Positions 2,805 through 64,000 of a DNA stretch of 64,000 bases are shown piece after piece. The notes under the pieces were generated by a model. The model ran no database searches. It had not been told where the DNA came from and saw only the letters and a program-made list of their open reading frames with translations. Positions within the stretch are counted from its first letter, which is position 1, and every line of letters starts with the position of its first letter. The translations under genes were made by a program, and so were the position numbers. The stretch is from Eledone cirrhosa (Eukaryota): positions 133,362,001-133,426,000 of the forward strand of contig OZ024741.1 of NCBI GenBank assembly GCA_964016885.1, in the 5' to 3' direction.

Positions 2805-4272
<1,468 letters not shown>

Positions 4273-10366: not shown

Positions 10367-10402
10367 TTTTAACGTTTCGGACGCTGGTCCTTCATCAGAA
10401 AA
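10367..10402 (-). ncRNA. Minimal type I hammerhead ribozyme
   Basis: Minus strand: tttt-CTGATGA-A-GGAC cagc GTCC-GAAA-CGTT-aaaa. Palindromic stem III (ACGT); stem I is weak. Confidence 0.6.
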
Positions 10403-17605: not shown

Positions 17606-17664
17606 ACGTACATACATATATGTATACAGACGTACAGTAGTATGTATATATATATATATATATA

Positions 17665-17933
17665 TACGATATTAAATAAATGGAAACTATATTTATAAAA
17701 CCATATTTATTTCATTATATATATTTCAGGGATATCATATTAACAATATGTTATGCCTTCCTCAGACAAAATACAATATAGACAGTTTTATAGATAAATA
17801 GATTTGACATACCGTTCAACATCGACTTTTGTCTGAGGAAGGCATAACATATTGTTAATATGATATCCCTGAAATATATATAATGAAATAAATATGGTTT
17901 TATAAATATAGTTTCCATTTATTTAATATCGTA
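17665..17933. repeat. Perfect 107-bp inverted repeat (17665-17771 / 17827-17933) carrying a hammerhead in each arm
   Basis: The arms are reverse complements with a 55-nt spacer; the element is flanked by (TA)n. Confidence 0.9.
17827..17888 (+). ncRNA. Minimal type I hammerhead ribozyme (mirror copy at 17710-17771 on the - strand)
   Basis: ttttgt-CTGAGGA-agg...cct-GAAA-TATATA-TA-atgaaa. Palindromic stem III ATATATAT. Confidence 0.7.
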
Positions 17934-18165
17934 AATATACTCCAAATACTTGTTGAGTGCTTTTATATCAGTTATAAATATTTACTAGTTGTAACCCAAC
18001 AATTTAAATATAACTTTCCATATATATATATATATATATATATGTACGTATGGATTCACCGAACATTTATTATAATGCTCGGTGTGTTTGTAAACAAACA
18101 TCCCGTATTAAGCCGTACAGTGTCTAGCAACCATCGTTGCTCATTTGTTCAACACTGACAAAGGA

Positions 18166-18208
18166 ACGCTGTACTAGTTTCAAGCTTATTAGCTATCATC
18201 AGCAACGT
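18166..18208 (-). ncRNA. Minimal type I hammerhead ribozyme, GUA triplet
   Basis: Minus strand: acgttg-CTGATGA-t-AGCT aata AGCT-t-GAAA-CTAG-TA-cagcgt. Palindromic stem III ACTAGT. Confidence 0.85.
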
Positions 18209-18398
18209 ATACCTTCCTGCCAGATGATTGAACGTCTGAAAGTATATACTTTCCTTATGCATATTAACGGCTGAGCAGCCTAATTTGCATATCGAGTGAA
18301 AAATTTGCATATAGTGAAAACTGGAACGGGAACAAAACAGAGAGGCAGTACGAACAAAGGTTTATTAGTTTCACGCTCTTGAGAGTGGGGGTGGTGGG

Positions 18399-18433
18399 GA
18401 CGACGTTTCGGGCATAAGCCCTTCTTCAGGCGA
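18399..18433 (-). ncRNA. Minimal hammerhead motif with eroded stem I
   Basis: Minus strand: cgc-CTGAAGA-A-GGGC ttat GCCC-GAAA-CGTC. Confidence 0.6.

Positions 18434-23297: not shown

Positions 23298-23310
<13 letters not shown>
22565..23310 (-). mobile_element. Non-autonomous Helitron-like element
   Basis: The minus-strand end has a GC hairpin (cccgagcaacgccgag) followed by CTAG|T. Internal segments are shared with 19880-20030 and 48410-48550. Confidence 0.55.
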
Positions 23311-23358
<48 letters not shown>

Positions 23359-23365
<7 letters not shown>

Positions 23366-23936
23366 CAAATAACGAAACAAAATTAAATTTTGTTTCGTTT
23401 GTAACTCACTTTTGTATGACTGACGCTTAAACAATTAAGTTAAAAATGTACATCCACATATGTATACTGAAATACTAGTATGCATATGAATACACACACG
23501 TGAGTTACAAACGAAACAAAATTTAATTTTGTTTCGTTATTTGTTTTTATCGTCTCCGCTGAACCGGTACGTACTCACGCTCTATGCAAATTAGTCTGCC
23601 CACTACTAATTTTCATAGAAAAAGCATATAACGATATGTGCTTTTACGATTCTCTAGAAAGGCCGGAAGATAGGTAAATATTGCTGATGAGATGTAACAA
23701 CATCGAAACTAGTCCAATATTCCTTGTCTGGCTTTCTGGAGAATAGAGGAAAGGTGTTTCCTCGAAAACCAGTATGACTCTAAAAACCGGTTTGTCTGTG
23801 TGTTTACATACAGAATAGCTGGACACTCACAGTAAAGTGTCCAGTGAAAAACTCGGTACATCTACATATGTACACGTGTGTGTATTCATATGCATACTAG
23901 TATTTCAGTATACATATGTGGATGTACATTTTTAAC

Positions 23937-23942
<6 letters not shown>
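23359..23942 (+). mobile_element. Non-coding hammerhead-bearing unit with an inverted segment spanning its head-to-tail junction, inserted in (TA)n
   Basis: 23359-23409 is the reverse complement of 23500-23550, and 23433-23502 is the reverse complement of 23873-23942. Confidence 0.75.
23677..23721 (+). ncRNA. Minimal type I hammerhead ribozyme, predicted cleavage after GUC at 23714
   Basis: aatattg-CTGATGA-GATGT aaca ACATC-GAAA-CTAG-TC-caatatt. Perfect 7-bp stem I, 5-bp stem II, palindromic stem III ACTAGT. Confidence 0.9.
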
Positions 23943-23974
<32 letters not shown>

Positions 23975-23976
<2 letters not shown>

Positions 23977-26022
23977 TTTACGTATCGAGAAAGAGAGAAA
24001 AAGGAGGGATAGGTGATACATATAGTTATTTGCCAAGTAGCGTATGCCAAAGGTGCTCGATACTAGTGCCGGCAGTATTAAATATTCGAAGTGTTAATAT
24101 TTAGTGGGCTAGAGAGTTAGCAGAGCGTAAGCACGTGGGAAAGTAAAAAATCGGAGAATAGACCGTTAAAACATGTTTATTTAAAATATCACCTACGTAC
24201 GTTTCGCCCAGTTGGGCTTCTCAAGGGCATAAATAATCACAAGTGTTCCTTATATAGTTCGGAAAGAGTTTTGGGGGTTAAATCTACATCAAGATTCATT
24301 GCTTGCAAAAATATCTTGTTTTGATTTTGCAGCAGGTCAAGGGAGGTAACTCTAGCCGGTGTTAGGGCAGTCTTTCCCGGATAATTTTTTTTTTTTTTTT
24401 TTTTGCCGCATCCGTTTGTCTGAGGCTGGGTCTGGTATGCAAGGATTGTTTTCTGGGTGTTATTTTGCTGCGCCTGCCCGCCGGGGTGTTAAGACTTGTT
24501 GCAGGGAGATCCAGTGTACTATTTCACTCTTCATTCTTAACCCATCTAAAGAAGGATATTTTTAAGCGATGTGTACAACTTATCGCTGTTTCAGCTCTGC
24601 TGTTGATGAGCTCGTGGGGTGCAGTTATGATGTGGTAGAGCTCCATGAGGCAAAGATCGCATTTCCTCTTGAAGCTGTACGGTGCAGCCCTGCCGAAATC
24701 TCCCAGTGCGTGGAGAAGCTGATGTTTAAGTCCTTTAGTGATGTGATGTAGTCCGCGAGCGAAGTGGAGTGCCTTAGTTTTCTATTTGTGAAAGAGTGGA
24801 GATGTGTTCGAAACCTAATTTTGAACGGGCCGGAGGTGGCCCCTATATAATGTTTAACGCTATTGTGGCTAGTAATAGTGCATCTATATATAACCCTATC
24901 AGTCAAGCAGTATCCTCTAAGGGGGCAGCGTCCTCTGTCGCGGCAGTTGCAATTTCTGTCGCGGTTCCGTCTATTTCCCACGGTAAGGCTATCATTGTTG
25001 CTGCCTACGTTGTTACCTACGCTACCGCAGCTGTCGTTAGCACAATTACAACCCACAGCACGCGGGATGGTGCGATTGTTATTCCGCACGTCATGTTCTG
25101 CATGTTCCCCAGTCACTTCGCGGTCATTCTGGTTGCGTCTGCGGATGCCGTTGCCAACACTATTGGATGCTGTCAGGGAGTTGTTAAGGCCGATATAGTT
25201 ATTGTCAGGTGTAGGTGCGTCTGTGTCGAGGTGCTGTGTCTTGGTGATCTTACTGTGGTTCGTTGTTCCTATGATGTCTGCTAGGTTAGGAGTAGTAGAG
25301 AAGGATATTTTTATATTGTTCCTATTAAGAATTTTTCTATACCTATGGTTGGGTGGGAAGTTCTTCTCTAAGGCTTCGAAGAATATCCGGGATATGTTGG
25401 AGGCCACACTTCGAGAGTAGGGGGTGGTGGAACCATAGGACGTTACGGTAGCGATTACGTGTCCTTGTACTTTTGCTACGGGTGGTTCCATCTAAGTGAT
25501 CGCTCTTATGTGTGTTAATGCGCTGTCGCCCGTTCGGTGCCCCTTTCACTTTATGCTCGAGTGCACTCTTTCTACCTCTTCCATGTTTATGTACACGAAG
25601 ATGTTGGTTGGAAGGCGTTGGTAGTAGGCCGTCGCCTTTGTTGGTTTTGTAATAGGGGAATAGTTTGAGTAATCTACAGTATTCCCCGTCGCCGGGGACG
25701 TGATCTTTGGTGCGGTTATCTATTCTATTATATCCGACTTTAACGATGTCGCCGCGTGATCGGTTATAGCTATGGCTTACTATAACGTTAGTTTTATGAG
25801 GGGGGGGGGGGGGGGTTAGAGCTAGCGTTAGGGATGTAGGAAATTCCTCGGTTAAAGCCGGCGCTTATCAGGGCCCTATTGTAGTAATCAGCCGCTTGGT
25901 TGAAGATATCCTCATTGGCGGATAGCATCGAGATTCTATGTGAGATACTATAGACTATGGAGTTGAGAATCTGCTTAGGGTGGTTGGAGGCATAATTAAT
26001 ATAAGAGAGGCACTCTCCAGGC
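23975..26022 (-). mobile_element. 5'-truncated Penelope-like element (Neptune-type): RT thumb/linker, Cys-rich region and GIY-YIG endonuclease, frameshifted
   Basis: YINYASNHPKQILNSI...RISMLSANEDIFNQAADYYNRAL (~25830-26020), WF-xx-PYSRSVASNI, CNCRDRGRCPLRGYCLTDRVIY...HYIGATSGPFKIRFRTH (ORF 24625-25491). (TA)n on both sides. Confidence 0.9.
24190..24230 (-). ncRNA. Hammerhead-like motif with atypical core in the 3' pLTR region of the Penelope element
   Basis: Minus strand: tgcc-CTTGAGAA-GCCC aact GGGC-GAAA-CGTACG-TA-ggtg. Palindromic stem III ACGTACGT. Confidence 0.55.
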
Positions 26023-33913: not shown

Positions 33914-34225
33914 CACTACCATGCTATTAGCTGTCAGAAGTGAAAGTTTCGTTATTTTAATAAAACATATCGATGTAAGTGGAGTTACTTAAATGAAAAT
34001 ATAGGTGGCCCTTAAAAGGGCCAAATTAGAAAACAAGTAATGGTTATCAAATAAATTGGATTTAATCATTTATATTATCATAGACATGGTTATCAATGTA
34101 GAAAACAAGTCACTTACATTGATATGCTTTATTAAAATAACGCGTGGTAATACGGAAATAAACGATGTTTACAATTGAGAAGGTTGACGAAACTTTCACT
34201 TCTGACAGCTAATAGCATGGTAGTG
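33914..34225. mobile_element. MITE with 39-bp perfect TIRs, in intron 1 of tubulin gene 2
   Basis: CACTACCATGCTATTAGCTGTCAGAAGTGAAAGTTTCGT at the left end and its reverse complement ending at 34225. Superfamily uncertain; no clear TSD. Confidence 0.8.
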
Positions 34226-36183: not shown

Positions 36184-37692
<1,509 letters not shown>

Positions 37693-43306: not shown

Positions 43307-43527
43307 ACCCTTTAGCATTCACATTACTTTATATGTACTATTATATTTTCATGGTAAAGGCTTTATCTCGCATAATTATCTCACATAATATCAAATCTAC
43401 AAAATCTTGATATTATTTATTTTGAGAACAATACCGTAACATCAGTTTGAGTGACCAGTTACAGCCAGTTTCAACAGAAAAAGGTAGAGAATTCTGGCTG
43501 GTTTTGGCCGGTTTGAACATTAAAGCA
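43307..43527. mobile_element. Short piggyBac-like MITE inserted in the CR1 3' region
   Basis: tcaa|ccctttagcattc...gaacattaaagca|ttaa termini interrupt the CR1 coding sequence. Confidence 0.4.
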
Positions 43528-44374
43528 TTAAATGGATAGCTGGAGAGCGACTGACAAAGGTCTTGCTGAGTGATGCTAAGACACCCTCGGCCTTCTTGAC
43601 AATTTTAGAGACGTGCTTTATCCAACATAAATCGCTGCTGACCGTAATGCTCAGGTCACGTTCACAAGAAGACTTCTTGATATTAGTGTTGTGGAGGGAA
43701 TATGTGAACGCTGGGTTTTTACTCCCAAAATGCATAGTGGTAGACTTGTCCACAGTTAGTTTGAGTTGCCAGTCTGTGATCCATTGTTGCATTGCGTCCA
43801 GGTCAGATTGCAGGAAAGATCTATAGTGTTCAGGATCTGTCCTTTTTATCTCAAGGTTGATGTCATCTGCATATTTCAGTACTGTGGCATTCTTTAAGTT
43901 GGCATCTATGTCATCAATATATGCCACAAACAAAAGGGGGCCAAGAACAGATCCCTGTGGTATACCAGATGACATCTCATATGGTGAGGAATGCTGTCCT
44001 AGAACCGTGACTACTTCTCTTTGACTGAGAATGAAGGCCTTCAACCAATTAAAAAGATCATCCTTCACACCCATTGCAGAGAGTTTTGCCATAAGTCTTT
44101 TGTGTGGCAGAGAATTGAAAGCTTTAGCAAAGTCAAGGTAAACAACATCCACCCATGAGCCGCCATCAGTGATCCGGGTGATGTATTCAAGAAACTCGAT
44201 AAGTTGATCACAGCAGCTGGAGTTAGGGTACATCCAAATTGCGAGGCCCGGATAAGACGTGAGAGTTCCAGAAGTTCAAAAGCGTTTCTCTGACACAGGA
44301 TTCCATCAGTTTGGCAATGCAGCTAGTAAGACTGACTGGACGTGATGTTCGGTTGTAGCAAGAGTTGCCTCCCT

Positions 44375-52197: not shown

Positions 52198-54208
<2,011 letters not shown>

Positions 54209-55189
54209 CTGGAAAATAAAAGATATCAAATAAATAATGATTTATTTCATAGCAATAATCTATGTCAATAATAAAAAGTATCAGTCAAGTACTGGTGTCG
54301 ATTTTTCCTCTATATCTCTTTCGCAATCTCTCTATCCTTCTCTGGAAGAAATCTGCTGTATTCAGACTTGGAGAGATGGGATCTGCCAGGTTTTAAAATG
54401 TCAATGTGGCACCCTTATGACTTCCCCAGGAGTTATGGGTTAAAAAGAAAAAAAGTAATCTTGTATACACACAACTGTAACATTAATTTACACACAAGGC
54501 CAGAAACAGCCTATAAGATGGCCCTGTACCCCCTACTTTTCAATAGTGCTCCTTTCAATTTAGAAAATAGTTTATAAAAAAAGCATCCTGAAATATATTC
54601 CTTGAAGTTGCAATTTTACTAACTTTTCTTCTTAAAACAAAAACAAAGAACAAAAATAACTAAAAAAAAGTTAACCAAAGAAGTTGGTAAAAAAATTCCC
54701 CTAGGGAATTAGAATGGCTACCCAGAATGTTGTGAAGCACCCTGAGCCCCAAAGCTTATGAGATTAGGTGTGAGCATTCAAAATAACAAAAACAACAAAG
54801 TATTTGATTGGTTGAATAGTACTTATTTTATTGACCTTGTAAGGGTGAAAGTTGAGCTTGGCAGTATTTGAAATCAGAATGTAAAAGTGCACTAATTTAC
54901 TGGTAATTTCTTATTGATGAGTATATCTTTCACTGACACACACTCACACACACATGCAGTGAGATCAAACCCAGAAATCATATTTGCAAATCAAACTTCT
55001 TAACCGCCCACACAGCTATGCCTGCACACAGGAAAAAATATAGAAATTCATTAAAAAAAAATGAGTGAAAATAGAAAGATCTCATTTTGTGGCCTTTTCC
55101 TCATCGTCGTCGTCATCATTTTTACCTTTCCATGCTGGCTTGAGTTAGATGGGACTTTTTATTACAATGCTTTATTGCCAGAGTGTTGC

Positions 55190-60749: not shown

Positions 60750-62597
60750 TATCATCATCATCATCATCATCATCAACGTTTAACGTCCGTGTTCCACGCT
60801 TGCATGGGTTTGGACGGGGGTAGTCCCACTTGAGGCAAGAGTGATTGTCTTGCTCGCATAGGACTGTCTGGCAGGTTTTCTACAGTTGGATGCCCTTCCT
60901 AACACCAACCACATTTACAGTGTGGGTCTGGGAGGTTTTTACCGTGTTGCCTACACGGCCACATTACAGCGTGGACTGTGTGTTTTTTTTGTCGTGACAC
61001 CTACACGATCTCATTTGTTTCGGCCTGGATGGTGTGGCACCAACACAACTTTACATAGAACGGGGTGGTGGGACGGGGGGGGGGGGTATTTTGTTAGAGA
61101 TGCCTACTGGCTGTAGTAGGTTTTACTATGTATTTAGGTAAGGCGGGTCTTCTCTGTTACTGAGTACCGCCAAAGGTCTCGGTCCAGTGACATTGTCTTG
61201 GAGAGGTGTAAGTGTGTGAGGTCGGAGTTTATCAGCTCGTCCTAGGTTTTTCTAGGTCTGCCTATTCCGTGGCTACCGTCTATCTTTATTGCCCTGCACT
61301 TTGTTATACAGCTATCGACTTTCATGCGCATCACGTGTCCATACCAACGTAGCCTTCTCTCGAGTAAACAACATCTGATCCCTCTTATTTCTAATTTTTT
61401 CCTTAGTTCGTTTATGCTTTGCCGTTCACGTATATTACTGTTACACATCCAGCGGAGCATGCAAGCTTCGTTCCTCTCTAGTCTGCGTATATCCTCTGCA
61501 CACAATGCCCAGGTCTCACTGCCATGCAACATTGCTGTTCGTATGCAGGCATCGTACAACCTGCCTTTCATTTTTAGGGAGAACCCTTTAGCAGCTAATA
61601 GTGGTATAAGCTCTCTGAACTTTTTCCAACCAGTTCTGACTCTAGCTACTGTACTTTCAGAGCACCCTCCCCCACTGATGATTTTATCACCCAGGTAACG
61701 GAAACTGTCCACTATTTCTATAGAACCCTCTGCGCAATTGAAAGAGCTAGTATTTTGTGGGCACTTGCTGCTACTTATTGCACCAGAGCACCGGCCACAT
61801 GTAAAATCTATGTTCTTAGTTAGCTTACCTGTGATCCCACTACATCTTTTATGCACCCATACTTTGCATTTAGGACATAAAATGGAGTTTCTACCTACGC
61901 CTTTCCTACACACCGAGCACGACCATTTCCCAGAAGGGACCGCCGCCTTATTTTCTTTCCTACAAACTAGAACTTTAGTCTTAGCCAGGTTAATTTTAAG
62001 GCCTTTTGATTCTAGGCCGTGCTTCCATGTTTGGCATTTCTTCTCTAGCTCGGCCATTGATTCCGCTATGAGTGTCAGGTCTGCGTATAGGAGTTCCCAT
62101 GGGCAGCTGGTCTTGAACTCCTCTGTTATAGCCTGAAGGGCAATAATAAATAGTAGGGGGCTGAGAACAGAGCCCTGATGGACGCCAACTTTTACGCTAA
62201 ACTCTTCACTATATTCGTTGTTAATTCTAACCTTGCTGACTGTTTCTTTATACATGGCTTGTATAGCTCTCACAAGCCATTCGTCAACGCCTAGTTTTCT
62301 AAGAGCCCACCAGATAATGGAGCGGGGGACTCTGTCGAAGGCTTTCTCCAAGTCGACAAAAGCTAAGTAGAGGGGTTTACCTTTAGCTAGGTACTTCTCC
62401 TGTAGTTGTCGTACAATGAAAAGAGCGTCTGTGGTACTTTTGCCTGACACAAACCCGAACTGCATTTCATCTAGGTCAATTCTCTCTCTGATTAGTTGTG
62501 CTATTACTTTTTCCGTGACCTTCATGACCTGGTCGATTAATTTAATGCCTCTATAGTTACTCCTATCTAGGGTGTCTCCTTTACCCTTATAACAGAT
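60750..62597 (-). mobile_element. 5'-truncated RTE-clade LINE (RT with PHD-like Cys-rich insertion), (TGA)n tail
   Basis: ORF 61242-62525: QFGF..GKSTTDA, DLEKAFDRVPR, GVHQGSVLSPLLF, YAD-L (one Asp lost), CSVC..CPKC..VHKRC..CGRC, RLRWYGHVMRM. Confidence 0.92.
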
Positions 62598-62604
62598 ATA
62601 TATA

Positions 62605-62938
62605 TAATATATTAATAAATGGAAACTATATTTATAAAACTATAATTATTTTATTATATATATTTCAAGGGAAACCAAGGCAAATTATGGTGCGCTTTCA
62701 TCAGATAAAATACAGATTTGTTTTATAAATAAATATTGACATACCCGGAAAAAAGACAACCTTGAAGTTCCCTGGATAGATCAGGTTGTCTTTTTTCCGG
62801 GTATGTCAATATTTATTTATAAAACAAATCTGTATTTTATCTGATGAAAGCGCACCATAATTTGCCTTGGTTTCCCTTGAAATATATATAATAAAATAAT
62901 TATAGTTTTATAAATATAGTTTCCATTTATTAATATAT
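62605..62938. repeat. Perfect ~157-bp inverted repeat with a 20-nt loop, carrying a hammerhead in each arm
   Basis: 62605-62762 is the reverse complement of 62783-62938. Same family as 17665-17933 and 20075-20180. Confidence 0.92.
62833..62898 (+). ncRNA. Minimal type I hammerhead ribozyme (mirror copy at 62647-62712 on the - strand)
   Basis: tattttat-CTGATGA-AAG..ACCA...TGGT..CTT-GAAA-TATATA-TA-ataaaata. Perfect 8-bp stem I. Confidence 0.8.
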
Positions 62939-62941
62939 TGA

Positions 62942-63556
62942 ATAAACGGAAAAAATGAAACGAAATTTCATTTCCCACTCTTAGTACGGCTGTTACTTAA
63001 ATATAAGTATGTATACGTACATACATATATGTATACAGACATACAGTAGTATGTATATATACATACATGCACACATATATATATGTACGTAAGGATTCAC
63101 CAAACATTTATTATAATGCTCGGTGTGTTTGTAAACAAACATCCCGTATTAAGCCGTAGTGTCTAGCAACCACCGTTGCTCGTTTGTTCAACACTGACAA
63201 AGGAACACTGTACTAGTTTCAAGCTTATTAGCTATCGTCAGCAACATATACCTTCCTGCCAGATGATTGAACGTCCGAAAGTATATACTTTCCTTATGCA
63301 TATTAACGGCTGAGTAGCCCAATTTGCATATCGAGTGGGTTAATCGGCCGGGAGCACCGAAAACGATAAACGGAAAAAATGAAACGAAATTTCATTTCCC
63401 ACTCTTAGTACGGCTGTTACTTAAATATAAGTATGTATACGTACATACATATATGTATACAGACGTACAGTAGTATGTATATATACATACATGCACACAT
63501 ATATATATGTACGTATGGATTAAGTAACAGCCGTACTAAGAGTGGGAAATGAAATG
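62942..63556 (-). mobile_element. Non-coding hammerhead-bearing unit, 424-nt period with a partial tandem repeat and a short inverted end
   Basis: 62942-63097 is repeated at 63366-63521, followed by the inverted piece taagtaacagccgtactaagagtgggaaatgaaat. Same family as 17600-18297. Confidence 0.8.
63205..63247 (-). ncRNA. Minimal type I hammerhead ribozyme, GUA triplet
   Basis: Minus strand: atgttg-CTGACGA-t-AGCT aata AGCT-t-GAAA-CTAG-TA-cagtgt. Confidence 0.8.
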
Positions 63557-64000
63557 AAAAGCGGATGTAAAATGATGATGATGATGATGATATATATATA
63601 TGCATTTTTCCTACTATATCAAGCATTAAACTAATATATATATTTTCATTAAAATGTATCGTTTATTGTATTGGTTTCTATCTACTTTTCACATATATAT
63701 ATTTATATATATATTGGAAGACCCTCAGTTGTGTCAAAGACATGACAGCTTCTCCTGTCCTGTGCACTTGGTGGTTTGTCAACCGTACATCAAGGAGACA
63801 CAGATCCCTGGCTTGCTTGAGAGATCAGTGGCTCTGCTTCAGTACTGACTTGATCTATGTAGATCCATCCAACCCTTACTAGCTGGGAAAGTGGATGGTA
63901 AAATGACAACAATAATGATGATGATATATACACACATGTGCGCACACACACGCACACAGCACATATATATAAGTGCAAGCTAACATACTTAATGTGAATA

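Follow-up and report, generated by a model that had tools for sequence, protein, structure and literature searches.

Two-armed insertions of a 466-nt hammerhead-bearing repeat family in Eledone cirrhosa: two fixed outer ends and probable priming from both target ends on one RNA

Introduction

The window analysed here is a stretch of 64,000 nt from the Eledone cirrhosa contig OZ024741.1 (positions 133,362,001 to 133,426,000). At 23359-23942 it contains a hammerhead-bearing unit, part of which lies next to it in the opposite orientation. This locus raises the question of how the inversion arose and what kind of RNA was copied. The original prediction saw in the inverted segment the preserved head-to-tail junction of a circular or multimeric RNA of about 465 nt, and attributed the inversion to a template switch. 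The template part of this view is retained in the analysis described below, while the inversion is better explained by priming from both ends of the target.

The insertion in the window

The segment 23359-23942 is a single insertion of a 466-nt hammerhead-bearing repeat family, flanked on both sides by (TA)n. A target site duplication is unreadable because both flanks are (TA)n. The numbering of the monomer starts at the hammerhead cut site. The parts of the insertion and its surroundings are as follows.

23298..23358, no strand: (TA)n microsatellite, left target flank (from sequence; the same flank lies beside the outer ends of most copies)
23359..23502, minus strand: left arm, or A arm, monomer 159-302, 144 nt; its outer end, towards the left-hand (TA)n, is fixed site A (302)
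23371..23399, minus strand: tail hairpin, left-arm copy, 13-bp stem (from sequence)
23410..23432, minus strand: the 23-nt linker of the original prediction, monomer 229-251, first part of the B-to-A tail (6,574 exact genome matches of the 41-mer across it)
23500..23502, no strand: central junction of the two arms, with a 3-nt exact microhomology, GTG (from junction analysis)
23500..23942, plus strand: right arm, or B arm, monomer 252-466 then 1-228, 443 nt; its outer end is fixed site B (228)
23510..23538, plus strand: tail hairpin, right-arm copy (from sequence and conservation)
23584..23591, plus strand: ATGCAAAT, octamer-like motif (from sequence; kept in the family and also found in the related family of about 424 nt)
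23677..23721, plus strand: type I hammerhead motif with a short palindromic helix III (from the motif; predicted cut after 23714)
23943..23973, no strand: (TA)n microsatellite, right target flank (from sequence)
23975..26022, minus strand: GIY-YIG Penelope-like element (PLE), 5'-truncated and frameshifted, with its own unrelated terminal repeat; a neighbour in the same TA tract, outside the insertion

The predicted inversion of 23359-23502 relative to the plus unit is borne out by two reverse-complement pairings, one between 23433-23502 and 23873-23942 (exact, 70/70 nt, E 1.5e-31) and the other between 23359-23415 and 23494-23550 (57 nt, 96%). The plus segment 23500-23942 is also as described, except that 23500 is a variable inner truncation point instead of the start of a unit. 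Its 443 nt and the 23-nt joining stretch add up to 466 nt, which equals the period of the tandem arrays in the genome (463-470). The joining stretch is genuine family sequence, to judge from the genome matches of the 41-mer, but what was taken for a head-to-tail junction is continuous family sequence; the point of RNA ligation is predicted to be the hammerhead cut site, 23714/23715.

The window unit has no ORF of 90 aa or longer. The tail hairpin of the window copy has an A:T pair at monomer positions 270/282 in both arms, where most loci have G:C. The motif ATGCAAAT is labelled octamer-like and may be a promoter element; a literature search for a snRNA-type octamer promoter gave nothing that names the octamer.

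The repeat family and the locus samples

The 466-nt repeat family is young and has thousands of genomic copies. Exact pattern searches of the 3.0-Gb genome gave 1,625 matches for a hammerhead 32-mer and 6,574 for the 41-mer across the 23-nt linker (reversed controls 0), as well as 2,263 for end A plus TA and 1,005 for end B plus TA (controls 0). The hammerhead matches cluster in arrays with a period of 463-470, in which the minus copies come first and the plus copies after, and the arms of the insertions reach at least 20 turns. Each monomer carries a hammerhead; the monomers are arranged head-to-tail in tandem, are non-coding and dispersed, and have no autonomous ORF attached. These sequence features place the family among the metazoan non-LTR retrozymes, a described class, and support the retrozyme-like character originally suggested for the template.

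Three samples of loci, all on one contig, were used. The hammerhead-anchored sample comprises all 29 clusters among the first 100 matches listed. The A-anchored sample has 80 loci, the first 80 of 87 new ones among the first 100 listed of 2,263, and the B-anchored sample has 20 loci from the first 100 listed of 1,005, two of which were selected for an apparent site B at both ends. A set of 63 loci with both an A and a B end (A+B) includes the window copy. Two loci, L096 and L097, are one insertion with the same junction and variants, present twice about 17.7 kb apart as a segmental duplicate; L097 is left out of the 63-locus set, while both are included in the 80-locus count.

Other features in and around the window

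A second, diverged hammerhead family with the same plan and a period of about 424 nt is found at 17608-18300 and 62975-63560 (minus). It has a similar hammerhead, tail hairpin and octamer-like motifs, and relatives of it occur in L139, L163, L182 and L183. A third small element, at 17680-17900 and 62620-62920, has two inverted arms and a CTGANGA...GAAA core and adjoins TA. Minimal PLE-type hammerhead motifs of other families are located at 18406-18429 and 10375-10398 (minus).

The window also contains a tubulin gene cluster (2808-3959 minus, 36487-37689 plus and 52201-54241 minus), and the regions around the first two of these genes contain near-identical stretches in opposite orientation. At 33983-34027 (minus) there is an Rfam histone 3' stem-loop with a score exactly at gathering; Pfam gives no match for the closest ORF tested upstream of it. 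LINE-type reverse transcriptase fragments (Pfam RVT_1) are present at 43523-44275 and 61245-62639 (minus), and a similar LINE-type element interrupts one retrozyme insertion (L055:2909-5113). Of four sequencing runs of unrecorded kind whose contigs were compared with the window, X1 behaved like genomic DNA. Run X4, which has an other-organism label, gave over 23500-23938 a single 495-nt looped monomer contig with one haplotype, either RNA or a collapsed tandem array; it has no contig over 23976-27500, and a filter may drop contigs, so this run is given no weight.

Two-armed architecture and fixed outer ends

Most insertions consist of two divergent arms in (TA)n, with fixed outer ends and variable inner ends. 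The outer end at site A is at 302 (variants at 296-300) and that at site B is at 224-233, each followed by (TA)n. A tail of 70-74 nt with a 13-bp hairpin separates sites B and A. An adjacent minus/plus pair of arms of at least 25 nt is present in 75 of 110 loci.

Each sample shows the same combination of ends. Among the hammerhead-anchored clusters, 23 of 29 are A+B and none is A+A or B+B; the other six are truncated, interrupted or extend beyond the locus. In the A-anchored sample of 80 loci, A+B accounts for 58 (both arms mapped in 43, a B arm shorter than 25 nt in 12 and a short A arm in 3) and A+A for none, so that the tail of about 70-74 nt is at one end only; the remainder comprises 13 loci without a second arm, 4 ending elsewhere and 5 extending beyond the locus. 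The B-anchored sample gives A+B in 13 of 18 loci, with the two picked pairs excluded. These pairs, L174 and L175, have site B at both outer ends and are exceptions to the rule of one of each.

The inner ends do vary around the monomer, which agrees with the circularly permuted start points envisaged in the original prediction. The fixed outer ends mark priming sites and are no argument against a circle.

Origin of the inversion

If the inversion came from one cDNA, by fold-back, template switch or self-priming followed by an asymmetric central deletion, the two arms should differ in length in a characteristic way. A self-priming model of this kind has been put forward for PLE inversion (PMC3846280). 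Just 3 of the 63 A+B loci have the expected difference (two of them, L132 and L142, are near-perfect palindromes), and the junctions of L036, L084, L090, L126 and L128 are at natural palindromes, as such a process would allow. Over the whole set, the lengths of the two arms show no correlation (rho 0.16, p 0.22); the B arm is the longer one in 29/63 loci, and in another 29/63 the A arm exceeds it by more than 90 nt. Since arm lengths are uncorrelated and so few loci show the expected difference, a fold-back switch is unlikely. The great disparity between arms in 58/63 loci, in either direction, also speaks against it, as do a second arm of less than 25 nt in 15/80 loci, inner coordinates of the two arms that are mostly unrelated and the second fixed outer end, which it leaves unexplained. 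We regard this origin as improbable. The template switch that had been proposed in the fold-back sense is therefore given up: because either arm may be longer and the two outer ends are different fixed sites, priming from both target ends fits better.

The two arms nevertheless appear to derive from the same template. Locus-private alleles common to both arms (35 alleles) occur in 22/63 loci, 'private' meaning not seen in any other locus of the sample, which is small and comes from one contig. Arm-fixed differences amount to 1 in 4,991 positions with at least two copies per arm. Central junctions are resolved in 36/63 loci, 20 being flush or overlapping and 16 having extra bases. Half of the flush junctions (10/20) have a microhomology of at least 3 nt, compared with 6.4% by chance (P about 1e-7). 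From the uncorrelated arms, the common haplotype and the junctions we infer that both target ends, one at A and one at B, were primed on one RNA. The inversion is thus likely to come from two coupled primings on one RNA rather than from a fold-back switch.

The hammerhead and constraint on the RNA

The hammerhead originally described at 23677-23721 is present, with the core CTGATGA and GAAA. Helix I is formed by AATATTG/CAATATT, helix II has 5 bp, and helix III has 2 bp with a palindromic 2-nt loop. The cut is predicted after GTC at 23714. Rfam at its gathering score gives no match to this segment. Among 69 loci the core is nearly invariant and position N17 is C or T only. In 24 loci helix II has a compensatory change, a swap of A:T to T:A, which is probably one subfamily event. 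A palindromic helix III suits hammerhead cleavage that depends on dimers (PMC4209133), and self-cleavage by a type I hammerhead is predicted for the retrozyme family.

Constraint is not confined to the hammerhead. Folded as a circle, the monomer has a predicted energy of -147.6 kcal/mol (z -10.5 against 60 shuffles), and in this fold a long stem closes around the cut site and is conserved. The most conserved part of the monomer is the B-to-A tail, with a divergence of 0.003-0.016, compared with 0.05 at positions 9-140.

Circular or linear template

An arm runs through the cut site in 58/63 insertions and both arms do so in 42/63. This agrees with the original claim that the template was longer than a unit, either a tandem multimer or a circle of about 466 nt, and shows indirectly, as far as genomic copies can, a multimeric or circular template. 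The 264 passes through the cut site contain 1 indel, where about 9 are expected from background. End-to-end jumping between cleaved linear monomers was also considered, and is disfavoured by these passes.

Coupled priming from both ends might equally have used a linear, uncleaved read-through multimer transcribed from young homogeneous arrays, with no circle involved. Clean passes at the cut site are equally expected from uncleaved RNA, and homogeneous arrays could be produced by DNA-level duplication. A PLE does not need hammerhead cleavage in vitro (PMC11167929), and cleavage in vitro was seen in 1/9 Xenopus retrozyme dimers (10.64898/2026.07.22.740005).

The distribution of derived variants bears on this choice. 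In 44 loci, 174 singletons are found in 67,515 cells and 92 variants are fixed across every copy of a locus, while those mirrored in one turn of both arms number 3 in 17,885 testable pairs. In the three loci concerned, L037, L046 and L140, the outermost turns of the two arms share a derived variant that is absent from the inner turns. These three favour the linear multimer and count against a monomer circle, on which they would need conversion or a change of template. However, singletons outnumber mirrored variants about 15-fold per cell, and variants fixed in all copies outnumber them about 30-fold. A circle is favoured because read-through of an ageing array should pass on mirrored variants, whereas a monomer circle fixes variants. 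The conserved hammerhead and the conserved stem that closes around the cut site also argue against the linear multimer, as does the finding that circles of related elements build up in coral, mussel and axolotl (PMC7229834). Given priming from both ends, the template was, on this evidence from genomic copies, fairly probably a circle; the linear multimer, though a serious competitor, is rather unlikely.

Inner ends occur all round the monomer but are slightly enriched close to the cut site (17/126 compared with 10.9, P about 0.04), an enrichment that fits linear cleaved templates or RT pausing and counts against the explanation preferred here. Long arms appear to be partly post-insertional, through DNA-level duplication, because 9 of 15 have higher-order shared variants.

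Neighbouring Penelope-like elements

The PLE that abuts the window copy may be described as Neptune-like on the basis of its Cys-rich linker, a feature described for Neptune PLEs (PMC8557442). Its two ORF pieces have no match in Pfam. The family to which it belongs is abundant and young, with at least 150 near-identical endonuclease matches. In 30 loci (L144-L173) this family has a variant hammerhead-like core and two fixed 3' ends 158 nt apart, a spacing much greater than the usual PLE tail of 30-40 nt. All five inverted pairs in these loci carry one of each end. Since this autonomous PLE family also follows the rule of one of each end, the rule appears to belong to the PLE machinery.

The adjoining PLE raises the possibility that the 466-nt repeat derives from the 3' end of an autonomous PLE as ordinary debris (pLTR pieces). 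Targeting of (TA)n, a one-sided tail and a 5'-truncated copy in inverted orientation are indeed PLE traits (PMC8557442), and fixed ends together with a constantly adjoining Penelope ORF had been named at the outset as the sign of such debris. Fixed outer ends are indeed seen, but 0 of 110 loci have a PLE ORF in sense orientation in the 700 nt upstream of an arm (with one 644-aa PLE protein as query, which distant clades may escape); a PLE ORF fragment is present somewhere in 25 of 110. The abutting PLE is antisense and separated by TA, and its terminal repeat has no similarity to the 466-nt repeat. The arms consist of monomer arrays that have haplotypes of their own and no ORF, and neither the unit nor its arms have the autonomous layout of an RT plus GIY-YIG ORF between pLTRs. 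Such an origin is very improbable indeed.

The 3' flanks of the other PLE fragments in the sampled loci, scanned for a hammerhead core, have none of the type found in the retrozyme family. A partner PLE enzyme was not found among the neighbouring family and the PLE fragments in the sampled loci.

Proposed mechanism

The explanation that we consider probable is that a borrowed Penelope-type enzyme primed from both target ends at two fixed sites on one RNA, probably a circle, to make the insertion. Tandem copies would be transcribed, and the hammerheads, probably acting as dimers, would cut the RNA into monomers of 466 nt, which would be circularized by ligation. A PLE protein with RT and GIY-YIG parts, probably a dimer, would bind the tail hairpin and cut (TA)n on both strands. 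Priming would then take place twice on the same RNA, from one target end at site A and from the opposite end at site B. Both cDNAs would run 5'-ward round the template, displace each other and stop at random points, and their free ends would be joined, often via 1-5 nt of microhomology. Some long arms may have been lengthened later by DNA-level duplication after insertion. Besides the mirrored variants, the excess of inner ends near the cut site and the partly post-insertional length of long arms, the B+B ends of L174 and L175, the 13/80 A-anchored loci without a second arm and the extra bases at 16 of the 36 resolved junctions stand against this explanation.

A bolder version of coupled priming is tentative, and on balance we lean slightly against it. 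A PLE RNP would grip the 466-nt circle at the hairpin, with two RTs, one on each side and one for each cut (TA)n end, both rolling into multimeric arms. The Penelope tail and inverted copy would in general arise in this way, and the retrozyme family would be the minimal substrate of the process.

Comparison with known systems

The retrozyme family has non-coding tandem monomers, a type I hammerhead and a short palindromic helix III in common with metazoan non-LTR retrozymes (PMC7229834; 10.64898/2026.07.22.740005), as well as low GC, high copy number and co-occurring PLEs. Its monomer of 466 nt is above the range of 150-450 nt given in PMC7229834 and within that of 51-972 nt given in 10.64898/2026.07.22.740005. 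Retrozyme circles have been seen in published systems, whereas the present family is known from genomic sequence. Rolling reverse transcription of retrozyme circRNA is a proposal (PMC7229834), and circles have also been proposed as PLE templates (PMC4209133). The accessible portions of the main texts of PMC7229834 and 10.64898/2026.07.22.740005 do not describe, for retrozymes, insertions with two divergent arms, a pair of fixed priming sites or targeting of (TA)n; the supplementary model figure S9 of PMC7229834 may bear on novelty. Titles, abstracts and partial texts found in a literature search contain no description of two-armed retrozyme insertions or of a coupling of one site per end.

An inverted copy, a one-sided tail and a (TA)n bias are known for PLEs (PMC8557442, PMC3846280). 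The anole Poseidon PLE cleaves and extends both strands in vitro, two internal start sites bound its tail, and it is predicted to be a dimer (PMC11167929). In the same system the main substrate is uncleaved RNA and the start sites are alike on both strands, two results that count against the explanation preferred here. The retrozyme family is like EN+ PLEs in its head-to-head inverted copy, its tail at one end, its (TA)n or AT-rich targets and its two start sites at a stem-loop. It differs from them in having no ORF, in that both arms are monomer arrays, and in a tail of about 70-74 nt compared with 30-40 nt. Its start sites are coupled, one per end, a coupling not reported in the accessible part of the in vitro study (PMC11167929).

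The origin of tandem and inverted PLE insertions and of their one-sided tail is an open problem (PMC8557442). The value of the retrozyme family is mechanistic, since its copies point to a single RNA, probably circular, that was primed from both target ends in a coupled manner. It offers thousands of young insertions, a small non-coding template and two mapped start sites. With one site per DNA end and one haplotype, the PLE insertion problem could be reduced to an in vitro test with a 466-nt RNA.

In L1 twin priming, too, a single RNA is primed from both target ends, and microhomology joins the inverted arms. The second primer of L1 is at a variable site, and the two arms cover different parts of the RNA. 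In the retrozyme family, by contrast, the two sites are fixed, and whole turns of the monomer are common to both arms.
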